Positions 1 to 62,846 of a stretch of 64,000 bases of DNA are shown here, piece after piece. A model generated the notes under the pieces. It had not been told where the DNA came from. It saw only the letters and a list, made by a program, of their open reading frames with translations, and ran no database searches. The DNA is from Candidatus Hydrogenedentota bacterium (GTDB taxonomy: Bacteria; Hydrogenedentota; Hydrogenedentia; Hydrogenedentales; SLHB01): contig JABWCD010000015.1 in the NCBI GenBank assembly GCA_013359265.1, forward strand, positions 40,329-104,328, in the 5' to 3' direction. Every line of letters begins with the position of its first letter. The first letter of the stretch is position 1. A program made the translations under genes and the position numbers.

Positions 1-3000
1 AGTGAAGCCTGCCCACAGTCAGATTGACGAGCGCCTCGCCGGAAACGCCGGTTAGCAGGTCGCGCGCAACAATGCGGTAACGCGTTGCGGGATCGTTCAG
101 CGCGAACGGAACGTAGGCGTCGCCTTCGCCCTTCTCGCAGACGATTTCCTGACCGTAGTGCGGCAGGGGGACGAGGGTTTCCGTGGTCACGGCGAACACA
201 TCGATCCGGACCAGGTGGTCTCCGGGCGTGGCTTTTCCCGTGTCGAGCGCGATGTGCAGCGGCGCGCGCGCGCCGGCCTGTACCGATGGAGGTGCAGTTA
301 GCGTACACGAGACGATTTCGTAGGGAAGCGCGGAGTAGAGCGCCGCGCCGCCGCGCACGAGTTCGGCCTCGACTTTCGCGGGGCGCAGGACCTTCATGCC
401 GGCGCGCAGGTCGTATACATGCGCAGACCGGTCGAATTTCAGCTTGACCTTCTGCAACTCGTCTGTGGTGTCGCGATTCGCGAGCAGGGCGACCAGGGCT
501 GCGTTCCCATACGCCGCGGCGAAGCGTTCTCCCTGGAATACTCTGCCCCTGCGCGACTCGAATTCGACTGTGCGCGTCGCGCCCGCGGACCGCAGCACTT
601 CGTCGAGCATGCCGCGCGCCCGGTCGAGCGCCGGAGCGTTGACGGAATGATTTATCAGGAGCGAAAGCGGCTGCTCCGAGCGCAATAACCACACGGGTGT
701 TGTATTCGCCAGCCCGCCGGTCTGCGCGCCGGCGGGTTCGACGCCTTCGTCCGCGCGGACATCCGCGAAGTCGCCGCTGACTTTGTGGCCGTCGATTTTC
801 AGCTCGGCCAAGGCGTTCGCGGGCGGGGCGGCGCGGGATGCGTTGGCATAGCGAATGCCAAACGTATCCGCCAGCGGCGGAGATTCGCGCGGCACACCGT
901 GTTCGTTGAACGCACCGGGCGCAATGTCCGCAATGACGCACCCTCCCGCCGCCGCGAACGATCGGATAGCCGCTACCTCCGCGTCGCTCAATGCGCGCGC
1001 CATAGGCAGAATTAACACTCGGTATCCGGCGAAGCCCGCTTTTTCGACGCGGTGCGCCGGCACGAAATCGTACGCGTAACCGAGTGCGCTCAGGGCCGAG
1101 GCAAACGCGCCTTCGGTCTCGGCGGAACTCACGCCGAACTGGTTGTCCACCTCGTTCAACCACGCGCTCGTCCGGCTGGTGTATATCGCGATATCCGCCT
1201 TCGACGGCGCGGACTTGAGCCAGAGGCGGGCGAGGCCGCCTTGGAGCGCCGTGGACTCGCCGAAAAACTCCGGCGCGAACGGCGCGACATCTCCGAACGG
1301 ATCGACAGCGGCCATCGCGGGGACGGCGGCAGTACTCGCGGTCACGTCGGGCCACCATATGCTGTGCGCGCGGTGCAGCAACGCGTACCACGGTAACCAT
1401 CGCAGTGTTTCCGGTGAGAGGTCCGCGGGCAACTGAATCCCGCCGATTCCGGATGCAGGCCGCGACGCGCGTGCAATCTCGATGGCGCGCAAGCCGGCTG
1501 GTGTCGCAAGCATATCGAGTTGCGACGCGAGCGCGCTCCAGTCGTATCCGGAGTAGAGTTCGTCGGCCGCCCGTGCCACGAGCCCCGTGCGCGAGCGCAT
1601 ATCCGCCATGCGTACGGCCCCGCGGGCCGAAACGTGAGTGCGCGCAAAACTCGCGTCCATAAACAGTCGAAAATCGATCCACGGAGCGTAGCGCTTGTTG
1701 TCGCGCGCCTGCTGCGCCGTAGCCGGCGCCGCGGCGGCGAACGATTCGTGCGATGTGCCCCATGCCCGGTTCAGCGCATCCAGGCCGGCATAGGTCTTGT
1801 TGAGGTATTCGGCGAATCCAGCCAGACAGTGGGTACACCTGCACAGGTCCTCCCGCGCCGCGCTCAGGCAATTGCCTTCGCCGAGCGACACGGCGGCCGT
1901 AGGGTAGTCGCGCACGAGTTGTGCCATGCCTTTGAGATAGGTCTGCTCCGATGCGATGAACTCGGGATTGTTGATACACGGCGCGCGGACTTCGGCGGGG
2001 GGCGAGTGATACGGCAGATATGACGTGATCTGCGGCACGACGCGCAGCCCCAGCGACGTCATGACACGCAGCGACTCCTCCGTCGCGGGAAACGAAACGG
2101 CCCCGAAACCCTGCGCCGCGAGGCTGCGGATATTTGCGCGCGCATTGAACTCGACGCCGCCGGACACGTCCGCGACCACATCGAACCGGTCCGTGGGATT
2201 TGGACCACGGACGGGCAGGTGTTTGTACGCGTAGGCGCAGTTACGCGCGTCCCACTCGGACATGACGACCGCATCCCGATCGGAGACAAAAACCTCCACT
2301 TTGACCATGTCGCCGATGAGGTCGGCGAAGCCGAGTCCGAGTTGCACCAATGCCGTTTCCGGCGGGATCGGCTGGTGGCGTTCGGCCACGATCCGCCCAA
2401 GGGGGTCAGTCGCGCGGGCCATCGCGAGGCACGGACGTTGCCGCGCGGGCATGGTGAACGTAATCCCGATACTGTCTTGCGGAAGGACGAAGGACTTGCT
2501 CAATGCGAGGTCAGCAATGCTCGGCCACGAATCGATCGTGACCACTTCGGAGTACCATTCGGCGACCTTGTCGCCATCAAGAAGCCAAATGTCGAGCCAG
2601 TATTCGCCTGCGCCCGCGACGACGACGAAATCGTGGGTTTGCGATCCCTTGCGAAGCGCATCGCGCTTTGGCGTAATCGTAATAGGCGGTTGGTTACGCC
2701 CGCGTTGGCGGACGCCGGCGCGCACGACATACGTTTTGTCCGCGGGCGCGGCGAGTTGAAGCTGGAACGGATGGAGGATTGTGGCTCCGGTGGGAAGGTT
2801 TGCGTCGACCATTTCCTCGAGACCCGGCGGGATTTGGATTTCCTCGGGGCCGGGCGCGGGCTTTGCGCTGACGCCGGCAATGGCTACCGGCACGTCGCGC
2901 CCACCCGCCCAACGTACAGCACGCGCCGCGAGCGAAAGGTAGGTGTCGAAATCCTCCTGTTCGGCGAGAAGCGGGTTCGCGAGCGCGGGAATGAGACAAT

Positions 3001-3706
3001 GGGCGAGCGGCCATTCGCCCTGATAGTCGATTTCAACGACGCGGCCTTGGCCTATCCTGCCGCATTGAACAAAGCCGAGCCCGGAGGTCCATTCCGCCGT
3101 CCGCTCCGCGCCGAGTCCGGTGGTCACGATCGCGCCCGATTCGTCCGGCGCGAACTCGTCGAGAAACGCTTTTAGTGAGTCCGGCAGGGTATGCCGGTGA
3201 TGGGCGAGCACAAGGCCAGTGCCGCCGCGGACTCTGTCGGCCAAGACCTGGAACACTTCCGGGGGCAATACGCTGAAATCGAAGTTGGCCGCGACAATGG
3301 CATCGAGCTTTCTGTCGAGTTTGTCGAGTAGATCGTGGACCACTTCATCGTGCGACGTACCTGGAATTTTGCGCGGGTACGCGTCTGGGCGGCCGAGGTG
3401 TGTGGCGTCCCACAGCGGGACAACCTCGGCGCGCATCTCGAGGCGGTGGGCCAGCTCCGCGGCGTCGCGCAACGCAAACCGCGGCGCGATGAACAGCACG
3501 CGCAACGGGCCTCCGTCCAACGGCACACCCCACTGCACGCCACCCTCGAGCGGCGGAATGACGATAGGCGCGAAGGCCGCGTCGCGTGAGTCGAGTTTTG
3601 GGGACGAATCTCCGAAGGGAAACGCAAGCGCGGCGTACGACGCAAGGAGCGCCGTGGAGTATACGATAGCGGCGCTCAACCGGCGAACCCGCAAGTTCGA
3701 GATCAC
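1..3706 (-). CDS. Large secreted glycoside-hydrolase family protein with a GH42-like (beta-galactosidase-like) core. The gene runs off the window at position 1 (3' end outside). The start is uncertain: GTG 3706, TTG 3694 or ATG 3781.
   Basis: Reverse-strand frame (end coordinate mod 3 = 1) reads through without stops from ~3781 to position 1. This explains why no long ORF is listed (no in-window stop). The N-terminus MISNLRVRRLSAAIVYSTALLASYAALA|FP is signal-peptide-like. The internal Cys cluster EGNCLSAAREDLCRCTHCLAGFAEYLNKTYAGLDALNRAWGT resembles the GH42 Zn-site plus the 'LNxAWGT' motif. All other listed ORFs in 1..3700 are short and Arg-rich (antisense artefacts). Confidence 0.6.
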   Translation of the reverse strand, partial: MISNLRVRRLSAAIVYSTALLASYAALAFPFGDSSPKLDSRDAAFAPIVIPPLEGGVQWGVPLDGGPLRVLFIAPRFALRDAAELAHRLEMRAEVVPLWDATHLGRPDAYPRKIPGTSHDEVVHDLLDKLDRKLDAIVAANFDFSVLPPEVFQVLADRVRGGTGLVLAHHRHTLPDSLKAFLDEFAPDESGAIVTTGLGAERTAEWTSGLGFVQCGRIGQGRVVEIDYQGEWPLAHCLIPALANPLLAEQEDFDTYLSLAARAVRWAGGRDVPVAIAGVSAKPAPGPEEIQIPPGLEEMVDANLPTGATILHPFQLQLAAPADKTYVVRAGVRQRGRNQPPITITPKRDALRKGSQTHDFVVVAGAGEYWLDIWLLDGDKVAEWYSEVVTIDSWPSIADLALSKSFVLPQDSIGITFTMPARQRPCLAMARATDPLGRIVAERHQPIPPETALVQLGLGFADLIGDMVKVEVFVSDRDAVVMSEWDARNCAYAYKHLPVRGPNPTDRFDVVADVSGGVEFNARANIRSLAAQGFGAVSFPATEESLRVMTSLGLRVVPQITSYLPYHSPPAEVRAPCINNPEFIASEQTYLKGMAQLVRDYPTAAVSLGEGNCLSAAREDLCRCTHCLAGFAEYLNKTYAGLDALNRAWGTSHESFAAAAPATAQQARDNKRYAPWIDFRLFMDASFARTHVSARGAVRMADMRSRTGLVARAADELYSGYDWSALASQLDMLATPAGLRAIEIARASRPASGIGGIQLPADLSPETLRWLPWYALLHRAHSIWWPDVTASTAAVPAMAAVDPFGDVAPFAPEFFGESTALQGGLARLWLKSAPSKADIAIYTSRTSAWLNEVDNQFGVSSAETEGAFASALSALGYAYDFVPAHRVEKAGFAGYRVLILPMARALSDAEVAAIRSFAAAGGCVIADIAPGAFNEHGVPRESPPLADTFGIRYANASRAAPPANALAELKIDGHKVSGDFADVRADEGVEPAGAQTGGLANTTPVWLLRSEQPLSLLINHSVNAPALDRARGMLDEVLRSAGATRTVEFESRRGRVFQGERFAAAYGNAALVALLANRDTTDELQKVKLKFDRSAHVYDLRAGMKVLRPAKVEAELVRGGAALYSALPYEIVSCTLTAPPSVQAGARAPLHIALDTGKATPGDHLVRIDVFAVTTETLVPLPHYGQEIVCEKGEGDAYVPFALNDPATRYRIVARDLLTGVSGEALVNLTVGRLH

Positions 3707-4031
3707 ACATTGAATAGCATTACTGCCATACCACGCGCGACGGCATACCACGCTCGACAGCGAGGCGGCGAATTCTCGCATGGCGCCTTGAAGTACAGCG
3801 AGACAATGCCGCTGTGGATCGTTCACGATTACTTTACTTGGCATATCGACGCGAGCGCCCGGCAGTTCGGTAAGGGTTGTACAGTTCGGGCATCCCGGTT
3901 CTCAGTTGACATGTGTTTATCATAGCGAAACCGGGAGTTAGGTGCTATGGCGCGGCGCATGTGATAGAGTATGCGCGCGCCCGGCAGTTGCAACGGGCGG
4001 TTTGGGCGCAGGGGGGCGGTGAGGTGGCAGC

Positions 4032-9513: not shown

Positions 9514-10146
9514 ATGTGGGAAGAGATTGACGGGGCCATCGAAAAAATCAGAGATACGCGCGCGGGTTGGGTGACGCGGCGCGACGCCGTCGAGCTGCTC
9601 GGCAAGGTGGCGACCAAGGCGCTCGATGCGTTGCAGGATGCCAGCGACGAGATGGACGTGGACGTGAAGCGGTCCGTTGACGATATGCTCGGCAGAGCGT
9701 CCGCGGCGTTGAAAGGCGTGAAGCCGAAATTCGAGTCCACGCCGCCGACATTCGACGAACTTGCGAAATCATGCGCGAAGGAGGGGGTGAGGCAGGTCGA
9801 GCCGGACGACGAGGGCTACGTTGTTCGTGTGAAGTTGAAGGACGGCCGCACCCAGGCAGTTCACATCCGCCGGTTCAGTCGCGCGGACGGCGTCGCGCTG
9901 ATCCAGGTGTACACTATCTGCGGCAAGGCGGACGAGACCTCGTACGCGTGGGCGCTGCGCGCGAACATGAAGCTGATTCAGGGCGCAGTCGCACTCGCCA
10001 AGCAAGGCGACGACGAGCGGTTTGTGTTGACGATGTGCTTCCTCGCGAGCGAAGTCACGAAGTCCGAGATCAAAGCAGCCGTGAAGGAGGCCGCGTATTA
10101 CGGGGACTGGATCGAGCAGAAGGTCAGTGGCCAGGACGATTTTTGA
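9514..10146 (+). CDS. Hypothetical protein, YbjN-like (putative sensory-transduction regulator / T3SS-chaperone-like fold)
   Basis: The second half (GYVVRVKLKDGRTQAVHIRRF...LIQVYTICG...LRANMKL) resembles the YbjN family. Low-complexity N-terminus. Confidence 0.4.
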   Translation: MWEEIDGAIEKIRDTRAGWVTRRDAVELLGKVATKALDALQDASDEMDVDVKRSVDDMLGRASAALKGVKPKFESTPPTFDELAKSCAKEGVRQVEPDDEGYVVRVKLKDGRTQAVHIRRFSRADGVALIQVYTICGKADETSYAWALRANMKLIQGAVALAKQGDDERFVLTMCFLASEVTKSEIKAAVKEAAYYGDWIEQKVSGQDDF

Positions 10147-11269: not shown

Positions 11270-12427
11270 ATGAGTGAGTGGAATTCGAGATCGGTGCGCG
11301 TGGTGCTGCTGCACAACTTCCTGTCGCCGACGCGCATCCCCTTGTTCGAGGCCCTCGCCGAACGCTTCGATCTTGACGTGTGGATACTCGGCGACATTCG
11401 ATCCGTGCGCGCGTGGCCGGCGGACGCGCCGGGCGCGCGTGCCCGGATTCGGACGTTGCCCCACTACACCATTCCTCTTGGCAGCCGATACAACGTCGTC
11501 CTCATTAACTACACGTTGCGCCGCGAATTGGCGCGTCTGAAGCCAGACGCAATCATTTGCTGCGGGTGGGATACGCCGGCGGCGTTCCTTGCTGCGCGAT
11601 TTGCGAGGCGAACCGGAACGCCGTTTATCGTGTGGAGCGGCAGCACGCCGGCGGAAACGACATTCGTGCGGCGCGTGACCAAGCCGTGGGTGCGCACGCT
11701 GGTGTGCGGCGCGGGCGCGTGGGTCGCATACGGGTCGCGCGCAAAAGAATATCTCGTGTCGCTCGGCGCGAACACGGACAAGACGTTCCTCGCCCACAAC
11801 ACCGTCGAACTGGCAGATTTCGCAAATGCGTGTGCGGCATCGGATGGCGTTGCATTGCGGGCGCGGCTGGGAATAGCGACGAAATATGTTGTGCTTTACT
11901 GCGGAAACCTGCTCGACTTGAAGGGTGTTGGAGACTTGATAGAAGCATTTTCGAAATTGGGCGAAAGCGACATAACGCTTGTACTCGTGGGAAGTGGCAA
12001 ACACGAAACGAAGTACCGCGCGCGCGCGAAGGAATTGGGTATCTCCGGCCGCGTTGTATTCGCGGGGTTTGCCCAGCCAGGCGATATGTCCGCGTATTAC
12101 GCCTTGGGCGATACCTTGATCGTGCCCTCGCGCAAGGAAGTTTGGGGGCTGGTAATCAACGAAGCGCTGGCTTGCGGCGTGCCGGTGATTGCGACCGACG
12201 CGTGCGGCGCGACGCCCGACCTCATCCGCGACGGCGAAAACGGATTCGTCGTTCCCGCGCGCAACCCCGACGCGCTCGCAGGCGCCATTGACGCGTACTT
12301 CGCTCACCCGGAGCGGCACCGTGCGATGCGCGATGCCGCGCGAGCATCGATCGCGCCGTTCACGATTGAGCGCGCCGCGGACGCATTTGTAGACGCTGTG
12401 CGCTGCGCCATGGGTAATCGGGCATGA
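11270..12427 (+). CDS. Glycosyltransferase family 4 (GT-B, group 1)
   Basis: EVWGLVINEALACGVPVIATD (E-x7-E motif) and C-terminal GT1 fold. Confidence 0.85.
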   Translation: MSEWNSRSVRVVLLHNFLSPTRIPLFEALAERFDLDVWILGDIRSVRAWPADAPGARARIRTLPHYTIPLGSRYNVVLINYTLRRELARLKPDAIICCGWDTPAAFLAARFARRTGTPFIVWSGSTPAETTFVRRVTKPWVRTLVCGAGAWVAYGSRAKEYLVSLGANTDKTFLAHNTVELADFANACAASDGVALRARLGIATKYVVLYCGNLLDLKGVGDLIEAFSKLGESDITLVLVGSGKHETKYRARAKELGISGRVVFAGFAQPGDMSAYYALGDTLIVPSRKEVWGLVINEALACGVPVIATDACGATPDLIRDGENGFVVPARNPDALAGAIDAYFAHPERHRAMRDAARASIAPFTIERAADAFVDAVRCAMGNRA

Positions 12428-13986
12428 ATTACGCCCGGCAGTTTGCGCAGCACGCGGCTCTGACAGTGCTGACAACGCTGCTGACCGGGGCGCTGTTCTA
12501 CGTGTTGCGCATAGTCCTGTACAAGAACCTGTCGCAGGACGAGTACGGCCTGTTCTACGTCGTGTTTTCCTGCGTCATGATCGTACAGACCATCGTCACG
12601 TTCGGTTTCGATCCGGGGCTGGTGCCGTTCATCACGCGCTATCGCGAGGAAGGAGATCCCAGCGCAATCAAATCGATCGCGTTGGGATCGCTTGTTCCCC
12701 AGGGATTCATCACGGCATTCGTCGTTGCCGCCTTTTTGGCCGTGCCGCCCCTGGCCGCGCCGTGGGTGGCGGCGTTTCCGGATGCGCCCGCGTTGTTCCG
12801 CACGCTTGCGCACCCGGCGTCGGCGTCGTTGTTCCGCATTCTCGCGCTGCACGCGGTGCTGGTGCTGATGTTCAAATGCGCGCAGCAGGTGCTGCTTGGC
12901 TTGCAGGCCATTGCCTGGCGCAACGCCGCCGACCTTGCGCGCGCGATTTTGTGCTTGGGCAGCGCTGTTGCGTTGCTGCACGCCGGTTGGGGAATCCGCG
13001 CGACCGCCGCGGCGTACACCCTCGGCGCACTTGCCGAGGCGGCGGTGCTGGCCATTGCGCTGTGGGTGTCTTTCCCGCATATAGTTCGCGCGCGCTTCAC
13101 GTGGCGTCCGGAGGCCGTGCGCCACGTGTTCGATTCGGGGAAGTGGCTGAGCGCCGGGTTCGGCGGGATCGTTGTGTTTTCTTCCGTCGATACGATGATC
13201 ATTTCGCTCGTGCGCAAGGAACTTCTCGACGCGGCCGCGTACCAGATTGCACTGCCCACCATCACGATCATGTACAGCCTGATGATCGCGGCGGGCATCA
13301 GCCTGTTGCCGATGGTGCGGACCTTGTGGCTCCGTAAGGAGTACGCGTTATTGACCGAGGGTGTGCAACGCATCTACGACACGGCGATTGGAGTCATGTT
13401 GCCCGCGGGGGTGCTTATCGCGTCCGGCTCGGACGTGCTCATGACGACGCTGTTCGGGAAAAACGTGCTGAACGCAGGGGACGCGTTTGACGTGTTGGCA
13501 GTCGGGGGCATTGCGTTCTTCCTTTCGTATATCAACCTGCACGTGCTCGCGGGAATCGACCAGGCGAGGGCTGCGGGCGTAGCGGTCATCTGCGGACTCG
13601 TCTTCGACGTCGCGCTCAGCGTGCCGCTTACGTATGCATTTGGAATCCGCGGCGCCGCCATCGCGGGAGTGCTCGGATATGCCTGCGTCATGGGTACCAG
13701 CCTTGTCGTCATTCGCCGCGCGTTGGCGATTCGGGTATCCATTAAGGCGATCATGGTCAGCGTGCTGATAAGCGCCGGCTGCGGGCTCGCTGCGCACGTG
13801 CTCAGGCGCTATGGGCTCATACATCTCGATCACCCGGTCACGAGCGCCGTATCGGGAGCGCTCCTTCTCGCGTTGGCGCTGGCCGCGCTAGAATTTATTG
13901 GAATTATTCATTTGCGTCATTTAATAACCACCATCAAGGGTGGGCAGGTGCAAACAATCCGCGAGCACAACCCGAAATGCGATTGA
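12424..13986 (+). CDS. Polysaccharide biosynthesis protein, Wzx-like MOP flippase
   Basis: ~14 predicted TM helices, 520 aa. 4-nt overlap with the GT4 gene. Confidence 0.7.
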   Translation: MNYARQFAQHAALTVLTTLLTGALFYVLRIVLYKNLSQDEYGLFYVVFSCVMIVQTIVTFGFDPGLVPFITRYREEGDPSAIKSIALGSLVPQGFITAFVVAAFLAVPPLAAPWVAAFPDAPALFRTLAHPASASLFRILALHAVLVLMFKCAQQVLLGLQAIAWRNAADLARAILCLGSAVALLHAGWGIRATAAAYTLGALAEAAVLAIALWVSFPHIVRARFTWRPEAVRHVFDSGKWLSAGFGGIVVFSSVDTMIISLVRKELLDAAAYQIALPTITIMYSLMIAAGISLLPMVRTLWLRKEYALLTEGVQRIYDTAIGVMLPAGVLIASGSDVLMTTLFGKNVLNAGDAFDVLAVGGIAFFLSYINLHVLAGIDQARAAGVAVICGLVFDVALSVPLTYAFGIRGAAIAGVLGYACVMGTSLVVIRRALAIRVSIKAIMVSVLISAGCGLAAHVLRRYGLIHLDHPVTSAVSGALLLALALAALEFIGIIHLRHLITTIKGGQVQTIREHNPKCD

Positions 13987-14040: not shown

Positions 14041-14069
14041 TTGACACGTATTGATCGCACGCGTATTCT
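14041..14069 (+). promoter_or_regulatory. Candidate sigma-70-type promoter (TTGACA-17 nt-TATTCT) upstream of the M4 protease gene
   Basis: ttgacacgtattgatcgcacgcgtattct lies in an AT-richer intergenic region ~250 nt upstream of ATG 14316. Confidence 0.25.
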
Positions 14070-14315: not shown

Positions 14316-17300
14316 ATGCGGTCCGGCAAGCTTGTGATTTTTGCAGTGGGGGTGGCTTTTGTGTGCGCCGCGTCGGCGCCGTACGCGCTGGCGGATACCG
14401 AAGATGCGGTGCGCGGCGTGCTGACGACGATGTCCGGCCCTAACATGCTGGACAATCCCCGCAGTTCGACAACCCCGGAGGGCTACCTGCGCCACGTCGC
14501 CGCGCCTTCCGGTAACGCATTTCAACCAAGTCCATCGGCAAAGAAGGCGGGCGCGCCAGACGCGATCGCCAAGTCGTTCTTGAAAGAACACGACGCTGCG
14601 TTCGGAATTCACGCCGGGGTGACGTTCACAACCAACCGTGTGAAGTCGGAAAACGCGCGCACGTTCGTCAAATTGGATCAGGTGTACAAAGGCGTCCCGG
14701 TGTTCGGCGCGCAGGCGATTGTTCAGATGAAGCCCGACGGCGGAATTGTTTCCATCCTGAGCGACATAATGCGTGACGCTCCGCGCGTGTACTCGGGTGA
14801 GTTGTCGCTGACTCCATTGTTGGATGGCGACGAAGCGGCGATTCTAGCGGCCGGGGTACTGGAAGACGAAAACCCGGGCATCGACTTTGAGACAAACGAT
14901 CCCGCGCTATACTTGTATGCGCCTCCGGTGATCGGCGCAACAGGCGCAGTGCGATTGGTCTACATCGTTGAAGCGAGCAACGCAGGCGCCGCCGTGGTGA
15001 TCGCGGAGCGGATATTGATAGACGCGCACAGCGGCGCAACGGCCCTGCGCATACCCATGATCCTCGAGGCGAAGAATCGCACCATCTACGACGCGGAGAA
15101 CGTGCCGGACGCAATCGGAACTTTGCGGCGCGCGGAAGGTCAGCCCGCCACAAACATCCACGATGTGGATGCCGCGTACGACTTTTACGGCGACACGTAT
15201 GATTTCTACTTATCCGAACACGGCCGCGACAGCATAGACGGCGCGGGTATGACGATGGATGCCACCGTGCGCTTTTGCTATGGATTCTGCCCTTTCCGAA
15301 ATGCGTTCTGGGACGGCGTGCGGATGTTCTTCGGCGAAGGCTGGGTGACTGACGACGTCGTCGGCCACGAACTTACACACGGCGTAACGCAACATGAGTC
15401 GAATTTAATCTATTCGTATGAGTCAGGCGCGCTTAATGAATCATTCTCAGATGTTTGGGGCGAATTTATCGATTTGGCGAATGCAGCCGGAACGGATACG
15501 CCGGAAGTCAAGTGGCTAGTTGGTGAGGACATTGCGAATCGCGGAGCGATTCGCAGCATGAAAAACCCGCCGGCCATGTCCGATCCGGACACGTATTTGG
15601 GGCCATTCTGGGTATTCGATTCGAGTGACAATGGAGGTGTCCACACGAATTCCGGCGTGAGCAACAAACTGTGCTATCTCCTAACCGACGGCGACACGTT
15701 CAATGGCTACATCATCGACCCCATGGGCATTCCGACCGTGGCCGAACTTTACTATGAGTGCCAGACCAATCTCCTCGGCGAGGGTTCGGATTACCCCGAC
15801 TTCGGCAACCAGTTGATTGTCGCGGCGGAGAACCTCGGGCTGAACGATGACGAAATCGACAATGTTGAGCGGGCGCTGTACGCGACGCGGATTCTCGAGT
15901 TTAAGTTCGATCCGCTGCGCCATTTCCGCGCCGCGGGCCGGTCGGGTGACAGCCGCGTCGCCTTGACGTGGAAAAACCCGACAGGTGGCGATTTTACTGG
16001 AGTAGATGTTGTCCGCAATTCCGACCGGTTCCCGGTGAACAATACCGATGGCACCGTTATCGCCTCGGTCATCAATGGGGCTGAAAGCCTGGTGGATACG
16101 CCGGGCGGCGGCGCGGGGACGGACTTTTATTACGGCATCTTTCCCCGTAGTGGCAGCTTCCCAGGCAACCTACCGCTGTTCGCGCGCGGGACAGTCGGGG
16201 TTGATGTGAACTTTTTGACTGAAGCGTTTTCGAACGGGACTGACCTATCGAACACGCAGATTACGATCGTTCCCGCCGGCGCAGTGCCGCTTATCGGCCC
16301 CGCTACGGAAAAGCCTGAGGTGTACTTTAACTACACGACGTACGACGCGCACGGTGCAAGCGCGGTAAAAATTGCGCCCAATTTTGACGGGACGCTTCCT
16401 GTAGCGAAGGAGGACTACTTCTTGCTCTCGATGGCGGATGACGGGGCGGTCGCATTCGAATCGAGTATTCCGATCCCGTTTTTTGGACGATTAATGGGTG
16501 ACCTGATTGTCTCGGCGAACGGGTTCATTGCCGCGGCGACCGACCAGTACGAGGCAGTGACCCTTAACCCAACCATAAGCCGAACGAGCCACTTTGCGAC
16601 GCCGCGAATTTCGTTCCTCTACTCCGATCTGGACCCGAGGAGCGGCGGAGAGGTTTGGGCGCGCACACTCGATGATCGACTGGTTATCACATTCGAAGAG
16701 GTACCGTCTTTTGATTCGAGCAACCTTGGCACACCCGGCGAAACGTTTGGAAACACGGTGCAGTGCGAGTTGTTCTATGGCGGACAAATCCGGTTCACAT
16801 ATCTTGCCCTTACCGCCGAGCGCGCCGTCGTCGGCATCTCCGACGGAAACGGCGTACCGCTGGACGTCAACGACATACTCAACGGCCAAAGCGCGGACCC
16901 GGCCGATTCCAACCTGAATTCATTGCCGGATTCGGTAGGGCTCGAGTTGCAACCGGTACCGATTGCGTTCCTCGAACCGGGCACGGTCCACGAGTTCACG
17001 GCAACGGCGCTTTCGACGCAGGGTCCACCGACCTACGCGATGTTCCCGTTGACTGAGCTCGGTGTACCTCAGATGACTGGGGCAACGCTCGACGCACAGA
17101 CTGGGGAGTTCAGTTGGGACACGACAGGCGTCTCAGACGGTGTGTACGGCATGATCCTGTGTGCCGCTGCGGGCCAGCTCACGTCGTGCCAGATTATCAC
17201 CGCTATTGTTGTTACATCAGATGTATTGCCGCAGGCGACGAATCTGTCGCTCACGCCGACCTCGCCGACGGACAGCGACAATCTCGTTGCGAGCTACACG

Positions 17301-17708
17301 TACGTGCATCCGTCTTTGCCGCAGGGTCCGTCCACGATCTACTGGTTTAAGGACAATGCCATCGTGCCGGCGTACACGAACCTGACGGTCGTGCCGCGCG
17401 CGGCGACAAAGCCGGGCGACTTATGGTACTTCCAGGTGCTTCCGGCGACCGTTTCCATCGGGACGTATGGCGGGCAACCCATATACCTGCGCGGCGCCCC
17501 GGTACTATCGAACGCGGTAAGCGTCGGGGCCGACATGAAGCTGGACACCAACGGCGACGGCAAGGTGAACTCGGTTGATCTGCAACTCGTGGTGCGCGGA
17601 TTGTTGGGTACATCCGAGCAGGGCATCGATCCGGACGTGAACGGCGACGGGAAGGAAGACGCCTCAGACGTTCAGACGATGATCAACTATATACTCGAGA
17701 AGCGTTAG
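14316..17708 (+). CDS. Secreted thermolysin-like (M4) zinc metalloprotease with a long beta-rich C-terminal extension and a terminal dockerin type-I module
   Basis: Signal peptide MRSGKLVIFAVGVAFVCAASAPYALA. HEXXH (VVGHELTHGV) plus the downstream GALNESFSD Glu ligand. The C-terminus has two Ca-loop repeats, DTNGDGKVNSVD and DVNGDGKEDASD. The listed ORF starts at GTG 14262; ATG 14316 is preferred because of the signal peptide. Confidence 0.85.
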   Translation: MRSGKLVIFAVGVAFVCAASAPYALADTEDAVRGVLTTMSGPNMLDNPRSSTTPEGYLRHVAAPSGNAFQPSPSAKKAGAPDAIAKSFLKEHDAAFGIHAGVTFTTNRVKSENARTFVKLDQVYKGVPVFGAQAIVQMKPDGGIVSILSDIMRDAPRVYSGELSLTPLLDGDEAAILAAGVLEDENPGIDFETNDPALYLYAPPVIGATGAVRLVYIVEASNAGAAVVIAERILIDAHSGATALRIPMILEAKNRTIYDAENVPDAIGTLRRAEGQPATNIHDVDAAYDFYGDTYDFYLSEHGRDSIDGAGMTMDATVRFCYGFCPFRNAFWDGVRMFFGEGWVTDDVVGHELTHGVTQHESNLIYSYESGALNESFSDVWGEFIDLANAAGTDTPEVKWLVGEDIANRGAIRSMKNPPAMSDPDTYLGPFWVFDSSDNGGVHTNSGVSNKLCYLLTDGDTFNGYIIDPMGIPTVAELYYECQTNLLGEGSDYPDFGNQLIVAAENLGLNDDEIDNVERALYATRILEFKFDPLRHFRAAGRSGDSRVALTWKNPTGGDFTGVDVVRNSDRFPVNNTDGTVIASVINGAESLVDTPGGGAGTDFYYGIFPRSGSFPGNLPLFARGTVGVDVNFLTEAFSNGTDLSNTQITIVPAGAVPLIGPATEKPEVYFNYTTYDAHGASAVKIAPNFDGTLPVAKEDYFLLSMADDGAVAFESSIPIPFFGRLMGDLIVSANGFIAAATDQYEAVTLNPTISRTSHFATPRISFLYSDLDPRSGGEVWARTLDDRLVITFEEVPSFDSSNLGTPGETFGNTVQCELFYGGQIRFTYLALTAERAVVGISDGNGVPLDVNDILNGQSADPADSNLNSLPDSVGLELQPVPIAFLEPGTVHEFTATALSTQGPPTYAMFPLTELGVPQMTGATLDAQTGEFSWDTTGVSDGVYGMILCAAAGQLTSCQIITAIVVTSDVLPQATNLSLTPTSPTDSDNLVASYTYVHPSLPQGPSTIYWFKDNAIVPAYTNLTVVPRAATKPGDLWYFQVLPATVSIGTYGGQPIYLRGAPVLSNAVSVGADMKLDTNGDGKVNSVDLQLVVRGLLGTSEQGIDPDVNGDGKEDASDVQTMINYILEKR

Positions 17709-17730
17709 GTATTAGTCGATACCGTATGAC

Positions 17731-17765
17731 GAGGCGTCAACGCAGTTGGCGCCTCGCATTTTTTC
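17731..17765 (+). terminator. Rho-independent terminator-like hairpin + T-run downstream of the protease gene
   Basis: gaggcgtcaacgcagttggcgcctcgc followed by attttttcg. Confidence 0.5.
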
Positions 17766-17947
17766 GTTTGGGGCCGGCGCATTGGACTGCGCGTGCAAAC
17801 CGTATCGTGCGACCGCCAAAGTACCTTCGACGCGGACCGATGCCCCCTGAAGAGTCTCGTGCTGTCTTGTTCGTTTTTCGAGTTCGGCGCCAAGTATCAT
17901 GACGGAATAGTCCGGTGCGCGTCGGGATTCATACTGGGTAGGGCAAA

Positions 17948-18820
17948 ATGGCAATAGACGGCGACGAAATCGCAAAGCTTCATGCGGAAGCGAAACGCAT
18001 TCGAAAGAATTTTCGCTACATTCACAAGGACCTGAAGCGTTCGCCGGAGAATATCGATCTACTGCGGCAGCGCGACCATCTGAGGAAGCGGTACGAGCAG
18101 ATTCAGGCGCGTTTGAACGAGGCAAAAGCGGCGGGCGACGCCGTGCCGCGGGAGCAGGAGGACGACTCGGACGGCGAGGCCATTGACATGTCCATCTTCG
18201 AACCGAAGCCGTACGAGATTCCGGCGGCGGTAAACGTTAAGCAGCGGGCCGCAGTTTCCGGGGGCCTGGGAGGATCGATGATTTCGGCGAAAGACATTCG
18301 AAACATCGTCAGCGTCGCGCTTTTGATCATCGTGCTGCCGTTTTTCTACCTGTACTTCGTTAAGGGAATGCGTTTTTACGAAGTGCCGACGAAATCCATG
18401 GAGCCGACGTTGAAGCCGGGCGACCGGATTATCGCGGTCCGCCCGCCGCGCTACGAACGCGGCGACGTGGTCGTGCTGCCCGATCCGCAGAATCCCGGCG
18501 ACTTCCTGGTCAAGCGGCTTGTCGCGTTCGGCGCTGACACGATTGAGATCGCGAACGGCAACCTGTTCGTCAACGGGCAGCCCGTCGGCGAGACGTACAC
18601 AAACGGACCGGCGGAAGGAAAGCTTGCGTTGACGACGGTCCCTGACGGAAACGTGTACCTGCTTGGCGACAACCGAAACGATAGCGAGGATAGCCGCGCG
18701 TGGGGGCCAAGGCCAATTGCTGATTTGGTGGGCCGCGTGTGGTTTGTCTACGCGCCGTCGGGGAGGCGAGGTTCGCTGGCAAACCATGCCGCCGCGTTTT
18801 CAGACGTTCCGGCGCCGTAA
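17948..18820 (+). CDS. lepB: Signal peptidase I (LepB). The listed ORF has a 110-aa coiled-coil-like N-terminal extension. A strong internal start (GGGAGGATCGATG at 18278) gives a canonical ~180-aa LepB.
   Basis: SMEPTL (catalytic Ser box), VKRLVAFGADTIEI, GDNRNDSEDSR box E. TM segment IVSVALLIIVLPFFYLYFV. Confidence 0.85.
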   Translation: MAIDGDEIAKLHAEAKRIRKNFRYIHKDLKRSPENIDLLRQRDHLRKRYEQIQARLNEAKAAGDAVPREQEDDSDGEAIDMSIFEPKPYEIPAAVNVKQRAAVSGGLGGSMISAKDIRNIVSVALLIIVLPFFYLYFVKGMRFYEVPTKSMEPTLKPGDRIIAVRPPRYERGDVVVLPDPQNPGDFLVKRLVAFGADTIEIANGNLFVNGQPVGETYTNGPAEGKLALTTVPDGNVYLLGDNRNDSEDSRAWGPRPIADLVGRVWFVYAPSGRRGSLANHAAAFSDVPAP

Positions 18821-31476: not shown

Positions 31477-33018
31477 GTGACTGAATTATGGGGCCGGAGG
31501 GCCTGCTGGGTTGTGATCGCGGCGGGTGTCGTGACGACGGTCGCGTTGCAGGCGTTCGTTCCGGCGGAGGAAGTGTTTTGGTCCGGCGACGGCGGCCTGA
31601 AGAACCTCATGGCGAAACAGTTTGCGCGCGGAACGATGCACGTCGATCTGCGACTGACGGAAAAGGAATGGGTACGCGAGTTATGGTCGTCCGGCCTGCA
31701 CCCGGGCGCGGTCGGCAACTACATGTTCGACATGGACGGCAAATACTTTTCGGTGTTTCCATACCCTTTTCCACTTTTCAGCGCGCCGTTCTATGCGCTG
31801 TTTGGCGTGCGTGGCTACTATATCCTTCCGGTGGTGTCGCTCTGGGCGCTTTGGATTTCGATGTACCTGGCGATGCGGCGCGCGTGTCTTGACGCATGGA
31901 AGATCGCGCTGTTGATGTTTGCGTTTATATTCGCCATGCCGGTCACGTTATACGGAGCTACATTCTGGGAGCATACGCCGGGCCTTGCACTCGCGATCAT
32001 CCCCGTTCTGTACACACTGCGTTATGACGACGAAGAGCCGGGCAGGATTGGGCCGACGCTCGCAGGTGCGTCGTTAGGACTCGCGGTGTGGTTTCGGCCG
32101 GAGACTCTGGCGCTTATTGCCGTGCTGATACCCGCGATGTTCGTGTGGCGCAAGGCGGCGCTCGGGATTCGGGGTTGGTTTCTGTTTTCGAGCGCGGCAG
32201 CCGGGATGATCGTCCTGTTCTTTGCGCTCAACTATTTTTTCTACGGCTACGCGCTCGGCACCCACGGGATTCAAATGACCAGCGGGGAACATTCGGCGCT
32301 GGGATGGGGCGTATTGGCGGAACGCTTCGCGCGCCTCGCCAGATTGACCGTGCATTATGCGCCCGTGGGCGGGTTCATGGTCTTCCTCCTCGGCGCACTT
32401 GCCGCGACGAAACGTTTCGCTTGGCGCAACGAATCCTCGTACTTGTTTGCGGTTGCCCTGCTTTTCTTTCCGCTGATGGTATTCATGGTCCCATCCGATG
32501 GTGGGTTTCAAATTGGGCCTCGGTTCGCGTTTATCGAGTTTGCTCTTATCATCCTTATCTGCGCGTTTGCATGGCGGACACTACCGCGATCGCGGGCGCT
32601 TCGCGCCGCGGCGGCCATCGTTCTCTTGTTGACCGTACTGTTGGGCATGAAACGAAGCGCGCTTCACGAAACACGTTGGCTCGCCGAAGCGTACCGAACG
32701 CGCGTACTGCCCGCCTACACGTTCATTGCCGAGCGCGACGAGAGCGTCCTGGCCGTGTCGCGCGTTGAGGCAACGCTGGAACTCGGCGGATTGATGGACG
32801 AAAAAGATTTCTTCGCCGCGTTCGATGACGAGAAATTCGCAAGACTGCTCGATGGGCTACGCGCCCGGAATATCGACCGTTTTCTGTTCGTTGCATTCGG
32901 CGATCGGAACACGGAACAAGACTCGGCGATTCAACACGAAGCAGCCAAGGCGCTTCGCATTGAGCCGCTCGGCAGATACGGCGAGCATTTCTATTGTTAC
33001 GCGGTGACAATCCCGTAA
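31477..33018 (+). CDS. Polytopic membrane protein, GT-C-type glycosyltransferase-like (ArnT/PMT_2-like)
   Basis: GTG start. ~12 TM helices, 513 aa, with loop motifs reminiscent of dolichyl-phosphate-mannose/ArnT-type transferases. Confidence 0.5.
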   Translation: MTELWGRRACWVVIAAGVVTTVALQAFVPAEEVFWSGDGGLKNLMAKQFARGTMHVDLRLTEKEWVRELWSSGLHPGAVGNYMFDMDGKYFSVFPYPFPLFSAPFYALFGVRGYYILPVVSLWALWISMYLAMRRACLDAWKIALLMFAFIFAMPVTLYGATFWEHTPGLALAIIPVLYTLRYDDEEPGRIGPTLAGASLGLAVWFRPETLALIAVLIPAMFVWRKAALGIRGWFLFSSAAAGMIVLFFALNYFFYGYALGTHGIQMTSGEHSALGWGVLAERFARLARLTVHYAPVGGFMVFLLGALAATKRFAWRNESSYLFAVALLFFPLMVFMVPSDGGFQIGPRFAFIEFALIILICAFAWRTLPRSRALRAAAAIVLLLTVLLGMKRSALHETRWLAEAYRTRVLPAYTFIAERDESVLAVSRVEATLELGGLMDEKDFFAAFDDEKFARLLDGLRARNIDRFLFVAFGDRNTEQDSAIQHEAAKALRIEPLGRYGEHFYCYAVTIP

Positions 33019-33121: not shown

Positions 33122-35245
33122 GTGCGAGTTCGGTGGACCCATGCGGCGCTTGCGGCTGTCGCGGTTTTGAATGGCGCCTTCGCGGTACACGCTGAAATCG
33201 ACGGCGGCGTGCGCAATCAGGCGGGTTGGGAGCCGCTGTTCAACGGCAAGGACCTGACGGGCTGGTACACGTTCCTTCAACAACTCGGCAAGGGCGCCGA
33301 CCCGGACCAGGTCGTTTCCGTAGAAGACGGCGTTATTCACCTCTACAAGCACGCGCCGCAGGGCGGCAACGTCGTGATGGGTTATATTTCCACGGAGACG
33401 GAATTCGAGAACTATCACCTTCGCATCGAGTACAAGTGGGGCGGGAAGACGTTCGAGCCGCGCCTGGCGCTGCCGCGCGACGCCGGAGTCTATTACCACA
33501 TCGTTGGCGACGACGCAGTCTGGCCGAAATCGCTGCAATATCAAATCCAAGTAGACGACGTGGGCGACTTGATCGCGTTGTACGGTGTCGCGTGCGACAC
33601 CTGGATCGATCCCGCTACGAAAGCGGACGAGATGGCGACGTTTCTCGATTCTATTGACGGCGGCGAGGCGCGCACGCTCGGCGGCCCGGGTATCGCGTAT
33701 CAAAAGCGCCGCGGCATGTACGAACTCGAGGGATGGAACACGCTCGAAATCATCTGTCACGGCAGCACTTCGATGCACATTCTCAACGGCAAGCTCGTGA
33801 ACCGGTGTGAGAATATCCGCTATGCCGATCACGAGTCGGGCGCGCCGCCGCGGCCGTTGAGTAAAGGGCGCATTGCGCTCGAGATCGAAGCAGCGGAACT
33901 CTTCTACCGCAACATCGAGATCAAGCGTTTGCCCGCGCCGGGAGAAAAGCCCGCGCCCATCGAAGGGCCGGACGCGACGCTCGCGGTCGGCGCCGCCGCG
34001 GCGAACCTTATCGGCGACAACGACATGGTCATGGCGGGCGGCATCGGGCCGTGGAAGCCAAACGGGCAGGAAGGCCAACTGCGCGCGACGGCCTTGGTCG
34101 TGAGTAAGGAGCCGTACGGCGCGCTCGCGTTCGTCGGCTGTGACGTCCTGTTCGTAACGCGCGAGGTTGTGGACTCCGCGCTCGCCGAGATTCAGAGCGC
34201 AACAGGCATTCCACCGGAACGCGTGCTGGTGAACGCATCGCATACGCACAGCGCGCCGAGCACGATTCGCGTACACGGGTACGGCCCCGAGGAGCGGTTT
34301 CGCAAGGCCGTGCGCAACGGCATCGTTGAAGCCGTGAAACGGGCGCACGCAAAACTCGAAGACGGATGCACGTTCAACTATGCGCTAGGCGCGGAATACG
34401 GCGTCGGCGAAAACAGCCGGCTGCTATTGGCCGACAATACGATTTTTTGGATTGGACCGCATGAAGACCGCGTGCGCCCGACCGATCCGTTCGATCCGGA
34501 GCTGCCGGTGTTCGCGTTTTATGGCCCAGACGCAAAGCTGCGCTCAATCCTGTATAACCACTCGACGCATACGATTGGCACCGTTTCGGGCAGCGTGCGC
34601 TCGCCATCGTACTACGGACTCGCGGCACAGCAAATCGAGCAAGAGAATGGGGCGACTGTGTGCTTCCTCGAAGGCGCTTCCGGCTCCACGCACAACTTGT
34701 ACTTGACGACACCGGTAATGATCGAGCGAATGAAGGCTGCGATCAAAAACACGATCGATAAAGGAGCGCCGCAGCGCATCCCAAAGTTGGGCGCAATTCG
34801 GCGTCCTTTCACCTTTAAGGTGCGCACATTCGACGAGCAAGCCGAGGAACAGAAGGTGAGTTCCTACGTGAATAAGCGCGCCCCCGCGGGGGCGGAGTAC
34901 ACGATTGGCGTGTTCCGCACGATGCGCGAAGAAATGCGCGCGCAGCAGGGCGAAGCCCGGGAAACGTACCTGCAGGCGATACGGATTGGCGATGTCGCCG
35001 TTGTCGGTGTGCCGGCGGAGTACTTCACGGTGTTGGGAATCGAAATTAAGCGGCGGTCGCCGTTCGCAAACACGGTGGTTGCCGAGTTGAGCAACGATTG
35101 GATCGGCTACGTCGGCGACCGAAAGGGCTACGAGCGCGGGGGCTACCAAACGTGGTTCGGCTACCACAGTTATTGCGAGATTGGAACCGGGGAAGCCATT
35201 GTGGACGAAGTTGTGCGAATGCTGGACGAGCTGTTCGCAATGTAA
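33122..35245 (+). CDS. Secreted fusion protein: N-terminal DUF1080 (3-keto-disaccharide hydrolase-like jelly-roll) + C-terminal neutral/alkaline ceramidase-like domain
   Basis: GWEPLFNGKDLTGW...IEYK...GRIALEIE...FRNIEIKRL is the DUF1080 signature. The C-terminal half is ceramidase-like (MAGGIGPW...GCDVLFVTRE...NASHTHSAP). The start is ambiguous (TTG 33080 or GTG 33122 giving a signal peptide). Confidence 0.65.
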   Translation: MRVRWTHAALAAVAVLNGAFAVHAEIDGGVRNQAGWEPLFNGKDLTGWYTFLQQLGKGADPDQVVSVEDGVIHLYKHAPQGGNVVMGYISTETEFENYHLRIEYKWGGKTFEPRLALPRDAGVYYHIVGDDAVWPKSLQYQIQVDDVGDLIALYGVACDTWIDPATKADEMATFLDSIDGGEARTLGGPGIAYQKRRGMYELEGWNTLEIICHGSTSMHILNGKLVNRCENIRYADHESGAPPRPLSKGRIALEIEAAELFYRNIEIKRLPAPGEKPAPIEGPDATLAVGAAAANLIGDNDMVMAGGIGPWKPNGQEGQLRATALVVSKEPYGALAFVGCDVLFVTREVVDSALAEIQSATGIPPERVLVNASHTHSAPSTIRVHGYGPEERFRKAVRNGIVEAVKRAHAKLEDGCTFNYALGAEYGVGENSRLLLADNTIFWIGPHEDRVRPTDPFDPELPVFAFYGPDAKLRSILYNHSTHTIGTVSGSVRSPSYYGLAAQQIEQENGATVCFLEGASGSTHNLYLTTPVMIERMKAAIKNTIDKGAPQRIPKLGAIRRPFTFKVRTFDEQAEEQKVSSYVNKRAPAGAEYTIGVFRTMREEMRAQQGEARETYLQAIRIGDVAVVGVPAEYFTVLGIEIKRRSPFANTVVAELSNDWIGYVGDRKGYERGGYQTWFGYHSYCEIGTGEAIVDEVVRMLDELFAM

Positions 35246-35297
35246 CGCTCTCGTAGGAATATCGAGAGTCAGTCCGCAGGGGGAAAAAGAAGTAAAC

Positions 35298-57682: not shown

Positions 57683-58504
57683 ATGGCCAATCCGCTCAAA
57701 GTAGTCACGAACTACTACCAGCATTTCAGCGCGGACTTCACGCTGCCGGTGCCGGAACATGGGTTCGGCGGGTGGAAGAAGGCTGAGCTGGAATTCGCAC
57801 CGGACCACACCGCGGTCGTAGTGATGCACGCGTGGGACTGCGGGACCTACGAGCAGTTCCCTGGGTGGCATTGCGCGGTGCCGTATATTCCGCGCGCGGC
57901 GGACGTGGCGAAACATGTGTTCCCCGAACTGCTGAGTGCGGTGCGTAAATCGCCGCTGCCGCTGATGCATGTCGTAAGCAGCGCGGGTTACTACAAGAAG
58001 TATCCCGGTCACAAGGCGGCCGTTGATCTGGCGGGGCCCGCGCCGGACGGGCCGGAGCATGCGGCATCGGACCCGTTGCGCGACAAATTGTCGGAGTTCA
58101 AGCAGGCGCATGTGTTTCCGGGGACTGCGAACCTCGCGGACATCGATAAGGGATTCGGCCGGCTCGATTTCGATCCGTATGCAAGACCGCTGGACAACGA
58201 GTACATCTGCGAGGATGGACACCAATTGTTTGCCGTGTGCAAAAAGCTCGGCGTGAACCATTTGATCTATGCGGGATTCGCGATCGACGGATGTCTGCTG
58301 ATCTCGCCCGGCGGAATGGTGGACATGAACCAGCGCGGGCTGATGTGCTCCGCGATTCGGCAGGCAGTTGTTGCGATTGAAAGCAAGGAGTCGGCGCACA
58401 ATCAGTTCGCGAAAGAACTGGCGTTGTGGCGCGTGGCGCTGCTGTTCGGGTTTGTGTTCGATGCGGACGATTTCACACGGGCACTGAAAGCCTACGAGAA
58501 TTAG
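57683..58504 (+). CDS. Hypothetical protein (possible isochorismatase-like cysteine-hydrolase fold)
   Basis: 273 aa. VVVMHAWDCG and LIYAGFAIDGCLL segments loosely resemble the isochorismatase-fold Asp/Cys regions. Weak. Confidence 0.35.
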   Translation: MANPLKVVTNYYQHFSADFTLPVPEHGFGGWKKAELEFAPDHTAVVVMHAWDCGTYEQFPGWHCAVPYIPRAADVAKHVFPELLSAVRKSPLPLMHVVSSAGYYKKYPGHKAAVDLAGPAPDGPEHAASDPLRDKLSEFKQAHVFPGTANLADIDKGFGRLDFDPYARPLDNEYICEDGHQLFAVCKKLGVNHLIYAGFAIDGCLLISPGGMVDMNQRGLMCSAIRQAVVAIESKESAHNQFAKELALWRVALLFGFVFDADDFTRALKAYEN

Positions 58505-58557
58505 GTTGGAATCGATCTACCGACCAAAAGAATCTTAGCAGGAGCGCAACGCCCCAC

Positions 58558-59692: not shown

Positions 59693-59797
59693 CTAACTTG
59701 TATCTCCGCTGGACGCCCTAATCATGTCACCATAAGATGATAGCGGAATCGCCTCGTTCCAAACAAAGCTTGTTTAACCCCAAAAGGTTGCGTCATT

Positions 59798-60286: not shown

Positions 60287-60287
60287 C

Positions 60288-62681: not shown

Positions 62682-62846
62682 GGTTAGGAGTCCAAGCCGA
62701 TGGGGGTTGCGGGAGGAATGGGAGCTATGGGAAGAATGGGAGCAATGAGACGAACAGGAGATGCAGATGTACGTCGGCGAAATTGCGAGGATTCTCCCAG
62801 GGCTCTCATGGTTCGCATTCCTTCCATGGGTGTCATCAATCTCATT

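Follow-up and report, generated by a model that had tools for sequence, protein, structure and literature searches.

Introduction

Type I dockerins of Clostridium thermocellum enzymes (Xyn10B 1OHZ/2CCL, Cel9D 4FL4, CelS 1DAQ) contain two tandem calcium loops of the form D-x-N-x-D-G-x-x-N/D-x-x-D, each with a helix, and are found at the very C-terminal end of secreted hydrolases. Here we describe a gene whose product has the same terminal arrangement, in a 64-kb stretch of DNA from Candidatus Hydrogenedentota bacterium (GenBank assembly GCA_013359265.1, contig JABWCD010000015.1, forward-strand positions 40,329 to 104,328; hereafter the window, numbered from its first letter). The gene encodes a predicted prepro-metalloprotease of the M4 (thermolysin) family that ends in a dockerin. 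Unlike the dockerins of cellulosomal enzymes, this one has a protease as its cargo and a Hydrogenedentota-like host, and the conserved signature of the helices in its family is D-(L/V)-Q-x-V-(V/I), in contrast to the Ser-Thr and Lys-Arg recognition pairs of cellulosomal dockerins.

The catalytic portion shares with thermolysin-like M4 enzymes (thermolysin, bacillolysin, Bacillus cereus neutral protease) the HEXXH motif, the glutamate of NExxSD, equivalents of the Tyr/Asp/His triad, a two-lobed catalytic domain and an FTP propeptide; classical M4 enzymes lack the ~600-aa C-terminal extension, comprising four beta-sandwich modules and the dockerin, that is found here. Fusions of a protease to a dockerin are known from cellulosomes, namely an S8 double-dockerin protein of C. 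thermocellum, which has been shown by experiment to dock to a scaffoldin bound to the cell, and a Ruminococcus flavefaciens cysteine peptidase that binds ScaE (PMC12484212). These differ from the window protease in catalytic class, in the Gram-positive envelope of their hosts, and in belonging to a polysaccharide-degrading complex.

Bacteria of the Planctomycetes-Verrucomicrobia-Chlamydiae (PVC) group have been reported to possess non-cellulosomal cohesin/dockerin sets (PMC11557425), and the ‘planctosome’ hypothesis (Andrei et al. 2019, ISME J; PMC6461901) proposes, for Planctomycetes, a cohesin/dockerin complex with dockerin-bearing zinc peptidases (M12B, M14). The resemblance to the locus described here is close: a secreted zinc peptidase that bears a dockerin of non-cellulosomal kind, from a diderm outside the Firmicutes, with surface-tethered proteolysis as the proposed function. 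The differences are that the peptidase of the window belongs to M4 and its host to another phylum, that the published model is itself a hypothesis, and that the planctosome as proposed includes a cohesin, an adaptor and an LTD anchor protein, whereas here the dockerin-bearing protease is the known part and no cohesin was found in the 64 kb. Dockerin-tethered peptidases are not a new idea and have precedents in the three reports cited above; a literature search for dockerin together with thermolysin returned no paper on an M4-dockerin fusion, and other searches returned none on dockerins specifically in Hydrogenedentes.

Results

An M4 protease with a C-terminal dockerin

The list of open reading frames (ORFs) places the gene on the + strand, with possible starts at 14262 (GTG) and 14316 (ATG) and an end at 17708. 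ATG 14316 is the likely start, because a Shine-Dalgarno sequence, GGGAGAGG, lies ~6 nt upstream of it and because the gene was called independently on a public contig of the same DNA (Logan SRR10914235_2323), with an identical 1130-aa product. The gene and the predicted parts of its product are as follows.

14316..17708, + strand: complete gene for a prepro-M4 metalloprotease with C-terminal dockerin; stop codon 17706-17708, product 1130 aa
14316..14393, + strand: predicted Sec-type signal peptide, residues 1-26, MRSGKLVIFAVGVAFVCAASAPYALA then DT (sequence reading)
14394..15080, + strand: predicted propeptide, residues ~27-255, FTP and a subsequent alpha/beta unit (Pfam FTP)
15081..15890, + strand: M4 catalytic domain, residues ~256-525 (Pfam Peptidase_M4 and Peptidase_M4_C)
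15918..16193, + strand: FN3-like beta-sandwich module, residues ~535-626
16203..16925, + strand: central beta-rich domain of ~240 aa, residues ~630-870; confidently modelled, conserved, with a weak NIDO-like signal
16941..17210, + strand: cadherin/He_PIG-like immunoglobulin (Ig) module, residues ~876-965
17232..17510, + strand: second Ig-like beta-sandwich module, residues ~973-1065 (AlphaFold2 model; only generic Ig/FN3 fold matches)
17544..17696, + strand: type I dockerin, residues 1077-1127, two loop-helix segments (Pfam Dockerin_1)
17544-17579, + strand: predicted calcium loop 1, DTNGDGKVNSVD, D1077-D1088 (translation)
17634-17669, + strand: predicted calcium loop 2, DVNGDGKEDASD, D1107-D1118 (translation)

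Dockerin_1 (PF00404) matches residues 1077-1127 at 46.6 bits (gathering cutoff 22.9, E 4e-12). The matched region consists of two segments, D1077-TNGDGKVNSV-D1088-LQLVVRGLLG and D1107-VNGDGKEDAS-D1118-VQTMINYILEKR, in each of which a 12-residue loop with acidic or amide residues at positions 1, 3, 5, 9 and 12 is followed by a helix; the helices start DLQLVV and DVQTMIN and are predicted at residues 1086-1096 and 1116-1128 in the full-length AlphaFold2 model. When the last 61 residues were compared with PDB sequences, the best match was the C. thermocellum type I dockerin of Cel9D (4FL4, E 4e-5), with Xyn10B, CelS and CelD the next dockerins (~5e-4 to 2e-3).

Peptidase_M4 matches residues 280-359 at 68.9 bits (cutoff 22.4), its N-lobe profile aligning only over positions 62-145 of 145, and Peptidase_M4_C matches residues 362-524 at 119 bits (cutoff 24.4). 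In the translation, the zinc motif HELTH occupies residues 351-355 (H351, E352, H355; 15366-15380), and E375, the third zinc ligand, lies 20 residues past H355 within GALNESFSD (15426-15452), a motif that aligns with the same motif in bacillolysin. Y366, D438 and H443, the last two within DNGGVHTNSG, keep thermolysin spacing; we take them to be the equivalents of Tyr157, Asp226 and His231 in thermolysin numbering. The matches of this domain in the PDB are bacillolysin (E 8e-44), B. cereus neutral protease and thermolysin, ranging from E 8e-44 to 5e-34.

Both parts of the protein are conserved in an alignment of 37 orthologues (35-71% identity). H351, E352, H355, Y366, E375, D438 and H443 are all invariant; the M4 domain is intact in its catalytic and zinc residues and not degenerate. 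Both dockerin loops are kept in 37/37 sequences, with D1077, N1079, D1081, D1088, Q1090 and D1118 invariant, and the joint conservation of catalytic residues and predicted calcium-ligand positions is far beyond chance. By sequence, the window protein is a member of the M4 family with a predicted zinc endopeptidase function. The NCBIfam equivalog models for ProA and leptospiral thermolysin score far below their cutoffs on it; it is therefore not an orthologue of either. Its C-terminus is, on the same kind of evidence, a genuine dockerin under selection, with calcium and cohesin binding predicted. We regard the enzyme identity and the dockerin call, taken together, as close to certain.

A first-pass annotation of the window, made from the letters alone, had already assigned the catalytic domain to M4 on the strength of HEXXH and GALNESFSD and had read two canonical dockerin calcium loops at the C-terminus. 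It proposed Pfam scans for Dockerin_1 and M4/M4_C, allowing that the loops might turn out to be generic EF-hands; all of these families scored above their curated cutoffs, the motifs were recovered in the translation, and the generic reading did not hold at the profile level. The annotation also described a beta-rich extension of ~700 aa, which is correct as to fold and too long: the region between the catalytic domain and the dockerin spans residues 528-1075, or ~550 aa.

The leader, MRSGKLVIFAVGVAFVCAASAPYALA, has a basic n-region, a hydrophobic core and an A-L-A cleavage motif, without a lipobox, and would thus be read as a Sec signal peptide. Within the propeptide, FTP is matched at residues 107-147 (14634-14756; 38.1 bits, cutoff 21). 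The full-length AlphaFold2 model shows a fold break with a low predicted local distance difference test score (pLDDT) at residues 249-253, and a maturation site may lie near the boundary between propeptide and catalytic domain (residue ~255).

Pfam has no match in residues 528-1075. An AlphaFold2 model of this stalk, built with 50 homologues, is all-beta (pLDDT 91, predicted template modelling score 0.88) and resolves into the four modules listed above. In the central domain, G724, G736, Q816, E818 and G823 are invariant among the 37 orthologues, and a profile of the domain found nothing significant among PDB sequences. Four of 20 homologues match Pfam NIDO (PF06119) weakly (best E 0.005) and the window protein has no match to it even at E 10; we rejected NIDO as a family assignment for this domain and retain it as a weak lead.

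A Hydrogenedentota family with alternative C-termini

The arrangement FTP, M4, M4_C and, at the end, Dockerin_1 recurs in more than 100 full-length homologues, which are 1100-1300 aa long. The named close homologues are ‘M4 family metallopeptidase’ entries of Candidatus Hydrogenedentes, Hydrogenedentota or Hydrogenedentales, the exceptions being an entry from one metagenome-assembled genome (MAG) with the label Nitrospiraceae and a single fragment called ‘Dockerin protein’ in its annotation. A scan of a genome collection with the family alignment gave, among the matches listed, mostly generic M4 enzymes of many phyla and few Hydrogenedentota loci, none of them from the species of the window.

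Two statements of the first-pass annotation are not supported. It had treated the dockerin as one of the sporadic, isolated examples known outside Firmicutes, whereas the protein belongs to a large conserved Hydrogenedentota family, and the same type of dockerin occurs on other Hydrogenedentes proteins as well. It had also called the genome ‘PVC-like’, whereas the close homologues carry Hydrogenedentes or Hydrogenedentota names and NCBI places Hydrogenedentota in the Fibrobacteres-Chlorobi-Bacteroidetes (FCB) group, not in PVC. That label was probably prompted by gene families of the window, a DUF7133-HEAT-cytochrome c protein (35181-38237, + strand) and a DUF1501/DUF1800 pair (61560-63965, - strand), which are common in Planctomycetes and Verrucomicrobia.

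The C-termini of the 120 best homologues were surveyed with a local hidden Markov model (HMM) made from the family's dockerins. A terminal dockerin, no more than 12 residues from the C-terminus, is present in 94 of them, while in at least 10 (~14 by eye) its place is taken by a hydrophobic helix with an Arg/Lys-rich tail behind it. Three Phycisphaerae-type members have a divergent dockerin-like pair at this position, and the rest include several truncated partial sequences and others with unrelated C-terminal regions. Members with the anchor-like tail keep the core of M4, FN3 and central domain, and TSP3 repeats often precede the tail. Because these relatives carry a membrane or cell anchor where the dockerin sits, the dockerin would appear to serve localisation; this exchange is the main argument for the role that we propose.

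A PEP-CTERM or other xxx-CTERM sorting signal was considered for the tails of the dockerin-less relatives, and for that of the cohesin protein described below, and was rejected: NCBIfam gave no PEP-CTERM match, and PVV-CTERM reached only E 0.9.

Candidate cohesin partners

A word-indexed homology search with the dockerin alone returned two short fragments and was uninformative. The last 61 residues were then used as the query of an exhaustive HMMER search in a library of 1.84 billion representative proteins. It gave 804 matches at E <= 1e-3, among them fragments of the M4 family and many multi-dockerin proteins. When 39 of these library matches were rescanned with Pfam, Dockerin_1 was present in 39/39; the cargo domains among them included Peptidase_S8 (5 proteins) and Peptidase_C11, and two proteins, P0153 and P0245, also contained Cohesin.

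With P0245 as a query, a family of small cohesin-plus-dockerin proteins was recovered (P0245, P0287-P0290, P0301; mostly 210-310 aa), together with two longer members, P0318 (412 aa) and P0373 (436 aa). Both domains score above Pfam cutoffs on rescanning in all but P0287, for which the assignment is a precomputed annotation. The dockerin helices of these proteins read DVQLVIN..LG, the same subtype as in the M4 family. Further dockerin proteins of this type (P0330, P0368, P0376, P0388) are named as Candidatus Hydrogenedentes/Hydrogenedentota.

One of the small proteins, P0290 (MDX9972323.1), is a cohesin-dockerin adaptor encoded in a MAG named ‘FCB group bacterium’ (GCA_034004565.1). Its locus, which we call L087 (contig JAVEWL010000062.1, 1164-4918), holds three adjacent cohesin/dockerin genes whose dockerin subtype is again that of the M4 family.

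JAVEWL010000062.1: gene for a protein with an N-terminal dockerin and TSP3-like repeats
JAVEWL010000062.1: 520-aa ORF with two cohesin modules and, behind each of them, a hydrophobic helix with an Arg-rich tail; this ORF may represent two fused gene calls
JAVEWL010000062.1: gene for the 210-aa cohesin-dockerin adaptor P0290, translated from the locus

The same MAG encodes another dockerin protein, P0273 (MDX9973432.1). P0234 (MDX9973928.1), likewise named ‘FCB group bacterium’, is a contig-edge fragment with 33% identity to residues 622-1129 of the window protein, dockerin included; the cohesin proteins and this orthologue of the protease probably co-occur in GCA_034004565.1. The source of L087 is labelled FCB group, like the lineage of the window, and is a different organism, its probable orthologue being only 33% identical.

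Poly-dockerin proteins with 7-16 dockerin-like modules in tandem also occur in the library (P0123, P0124, P0129, P0132, P0137), S8 or C11 peptidases being fused to some of them; one poly-dockerin protein, with nine dockerins and an S8 domain, is named as Patescibacteria. Such arrays do not fit a simple scheme of one dockerin to one cohesin.

Transcription unit and neighbouring genes

The gap of 330 bp upstream of the protease gene contains one sigma-70-like promoter candidate with 10/12 consensus matches, against 0.3 expected, and a terminator-like hairpin with a 12-bp stem (8 G-C pairs) and a following T-run begins 22 nt past the stop codon.

14041..14069, + strand: sigma-70-like promoter candidate, TTGACA-17-TATTCT (consensus scan; pattern match only)
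17730..17766 (17730-17756 in a shorter delimitation), + strand: intrinsic-terminator-like hairpin and T-run (terminator scan and sequence reading; pattern match only)

A promoter-like site on one side and a terminator-like hairpin on the other suggest that the protease gene is a monocistronic unit. Rfam and tRNA scans of the 64-kb window found nothing.

Directly upstream of the protease gene lie genes for a glycosyltransferase family 4 (GT4) protein and a Polysacc_synt (Wzx/MOP-type) flippase (11270-13986, + strand). The same genes precede the protease gene at the loci of a 63%-identical orthologue, L002 (2975-5664), and a 50%-identical one, L004 (2958-5629), and the flippase only at that of a 40%-identical one, L006 (930-2513); a gap of ~330-370 bp always separates the flippase/GT4 genes from the protease gene. 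This arrangement may reflect functional coupling to the envelope or exopolysaccharide, or mere conserved synteny. Directly downstream is a signal peptidase I gene (Peptidase_S26; 17948-18820, + strand), whose product is extended at the N-terminus by ~120 aa, an unusually long and charged stretch ahead of its membrane segment. It was considered as a functional partner and rejected: the adjacency occurs in the window and the identical contig, and not in L002, L004 or L006.

Elsewhere in the window, a stretch at ~58500-60870 has a lower G+C content (0.52 vs ~0.61 for the window), contains several minus-strand ORFs of 99-223 aa without a Pfam match, and adjoins a gene for a sigma factor of the extracytoplasmic function type (60863-61831, - strand); it may hold foreign or lineage-specific genes. 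An ORF of >1300 aa that runs off the left edge (2-3901, - strand) has weak domains like those of glycoside hydrolase family 42 beta-galactosidases (Glyco_hydro_42M, 35.5 bits) and over the greater part of its length no assigned family. Four sizeable + strand ORFs with gene-like codon composition (9514-10146, 31477-33018, 38243-39715, 57683-58504) match no Pfam family at E <= 1e-3.

Discussion

The features described above can be drawn together into one proposal. The Sec pathway would export the prepro-M4 protease, and the FTP propeptide would serve as intramolecular chaperone and inhibitor until it is removed autocatalytically, as is established for M4 enzymes. The mature enzyme of ~875 aa would then stay on the producing cell, or in a complex, instead of diffusing away, its calcium-loaded dockerin binding a cohesin-bearing protein, membrane-anchored or of the adaptor kind, encoded elsewhere in the genome. 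Spacing, substrate binding or both would fall to the beta-sandwich stalk, and the function of the whole would be surface-tethered extracellular proteolysis for nutrient acquisition. Cohesin-mediated tethering of the window protease is plausible, and the full proposal, from prepro-protease to docking at the surface or in a complex, is in our judgement slightly more probable than its negation. The case for a cohesin-like anchoring system, which the first-pass annotation had inferred, is strengthened by three lines of evidence: the prevalence of a terminal dockerin among homologues while others carry an anchor-like tail, the shared dockerin subtype of the small cohesin-plus-dockerin proteins, and the presence in GCA_034004565.1 of a dockerin/cohesin cluster together with a probable orthologue of the protease.

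Several observations weigh on the other side. Pfam scans of ~40 ORFs found no cohesin in the 64-kb window, in agreement with the first-pass annotation, and local searches of the window with a cohesin query and with the cohesin proteins of L087 were also negative. The window contains a single detected dockerin; neither a cohesin nor, by regular expression and dockerin HMM, a second dockerin turned up there or in the regions flanking the family loci L001-L084. P0234 was placed in GCA_034004565.1 by organism name and accession proximity only, so that its membership is probable. The two dockerin segments are joined by a linker 6 residues shorter than that of cellulosomal dockerins for which cohesin binding is proven. 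In pairwise comparison with the last 61 residues, moreover, the EF-hand protein CaBP1 (E 5e-4) is nearly as good as the solved dockerins (E 4e-5). To our knowledge, many non-cellulosomal dockerins have no known partner.

The closeness of the CaBP1 match, obtained with phmmer, is what would favour reading the C-terminal loops as a chance or generic pair of EF-hand-like loops. Because the pairwise scores of EF-hands and dockerins are so similar, discrimination rests on the Pfam profiles and on context, and both argue against this reading: EF-hand_5 reaches 11.2 bits on the same loops (cutoff 25.9), far below the Dockerin_1 score; the secreted enzyme ends in a duplicated loop-helix of dockerin type with a short linker; the terminal dockerin is retained in most of the homologues surveyed; and the same subtype is fused to cohesins. 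We consider an EF-hand pair largely refuted already and highly improbable. An explanation that accepts the dockerin is that the whole C-terminal extension is a transient aid to secretion or folding that is cleaved off, leaving a free soluble protease of ~30 kDa. Several M4 proteases lose C-terminal PPC/PKD domains in this way, C-terminal processing being familiar from vibriolysins and other M4 enzymes, and the catalytic domain has a clear boundary at ~525; yet ~600 aa of conserved, confidently folded modules with an invariant dockerin would be much to maintain for a discarded segment, and the membrane anchor at the same end of relatives argues for a persistent location signal, so that we hold this to be unlikely.

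A more serious competitor, still one to which we give well under even weight, is that the dockerin binds no cohesin and is a calcium-dependent structural or adhesive module of the same protease, stabilising the secreted enzyme or binding envelope or exopolysaccharide (compare the adjacent GT4/Wzx genes) or the surfaces of prey or detritus. It would account for the absence of a cohesin from the window, and orphan dockerins are common outside Firmicutes. The same C-terminal region of some relatives holds TSP3 calcium-binding repeats (PF18884/PF02412) instead, the nearest library dockerins are often tandem arrays of 4-16 copies, unlike one-to-one scaffold docking, and a Wzx-type flippase is kept directly upstream in four genomes, with GT4 in three of them. 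However, the same dockerin subtype is found on cohesin-bearing proteins, which occur clustered with dockerin proteins, and the TSP3-bearing relatives still end in an anchor-like tail, so that the function that is swapped looks like anchoring and not calcium binding.

More tentatively, and with less confidence than in docking itself, we suggest that Hydrogenedentota and allied FCB-group diderms may run a ‘proteolysome’ built of cohesins and dockerins at the cell surface. The M4 protease, along with other dockerin-tagged hydrolases, would be displayed by membrane-anchored cohesin proteins and small cohesin-dockerin adaptors such as those of L087; sister lineages would anchor the same protease directly by a C-terminal membrane tail; and the conserved Wzx flippase, accompanied by GT4 in three of four genomes, might couple display to the envelope glycan.

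The window protease is solidly real and modestly surprising; the alternation of dockerin and membrane tail and the candidate adaptor family are of more interest. M4-dockerin proteins are already in public databases under automatic ‘M4 family metallopeptidase’ names, and the present gene stands as a well-annotated example of a family with >100 database members. The family is also a source of compact dockerins (~55 aa, with a short linker) bearing a distinct recognition signature, D-L/V-Q-x-V-V/I-N, which might be orthogonal to clostridial pairs and so of use in designer scaffolds. The dockerin/membrane-tail alternation and the adaptor candidates make the docking hypothesis directly testable. 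If it holds, the M4 dockerin and the small cohesin-dockerin adaptors would form a tractable, highly conserved test pair for the as yet untested ‘planctosome’ idea, and the dockerin's binding to a cohesin would provide a clear case of cohesin-dockerin assembly for the degradation of protein, not polysaccharide, in a poorly studied, uncultured diderm phylum.

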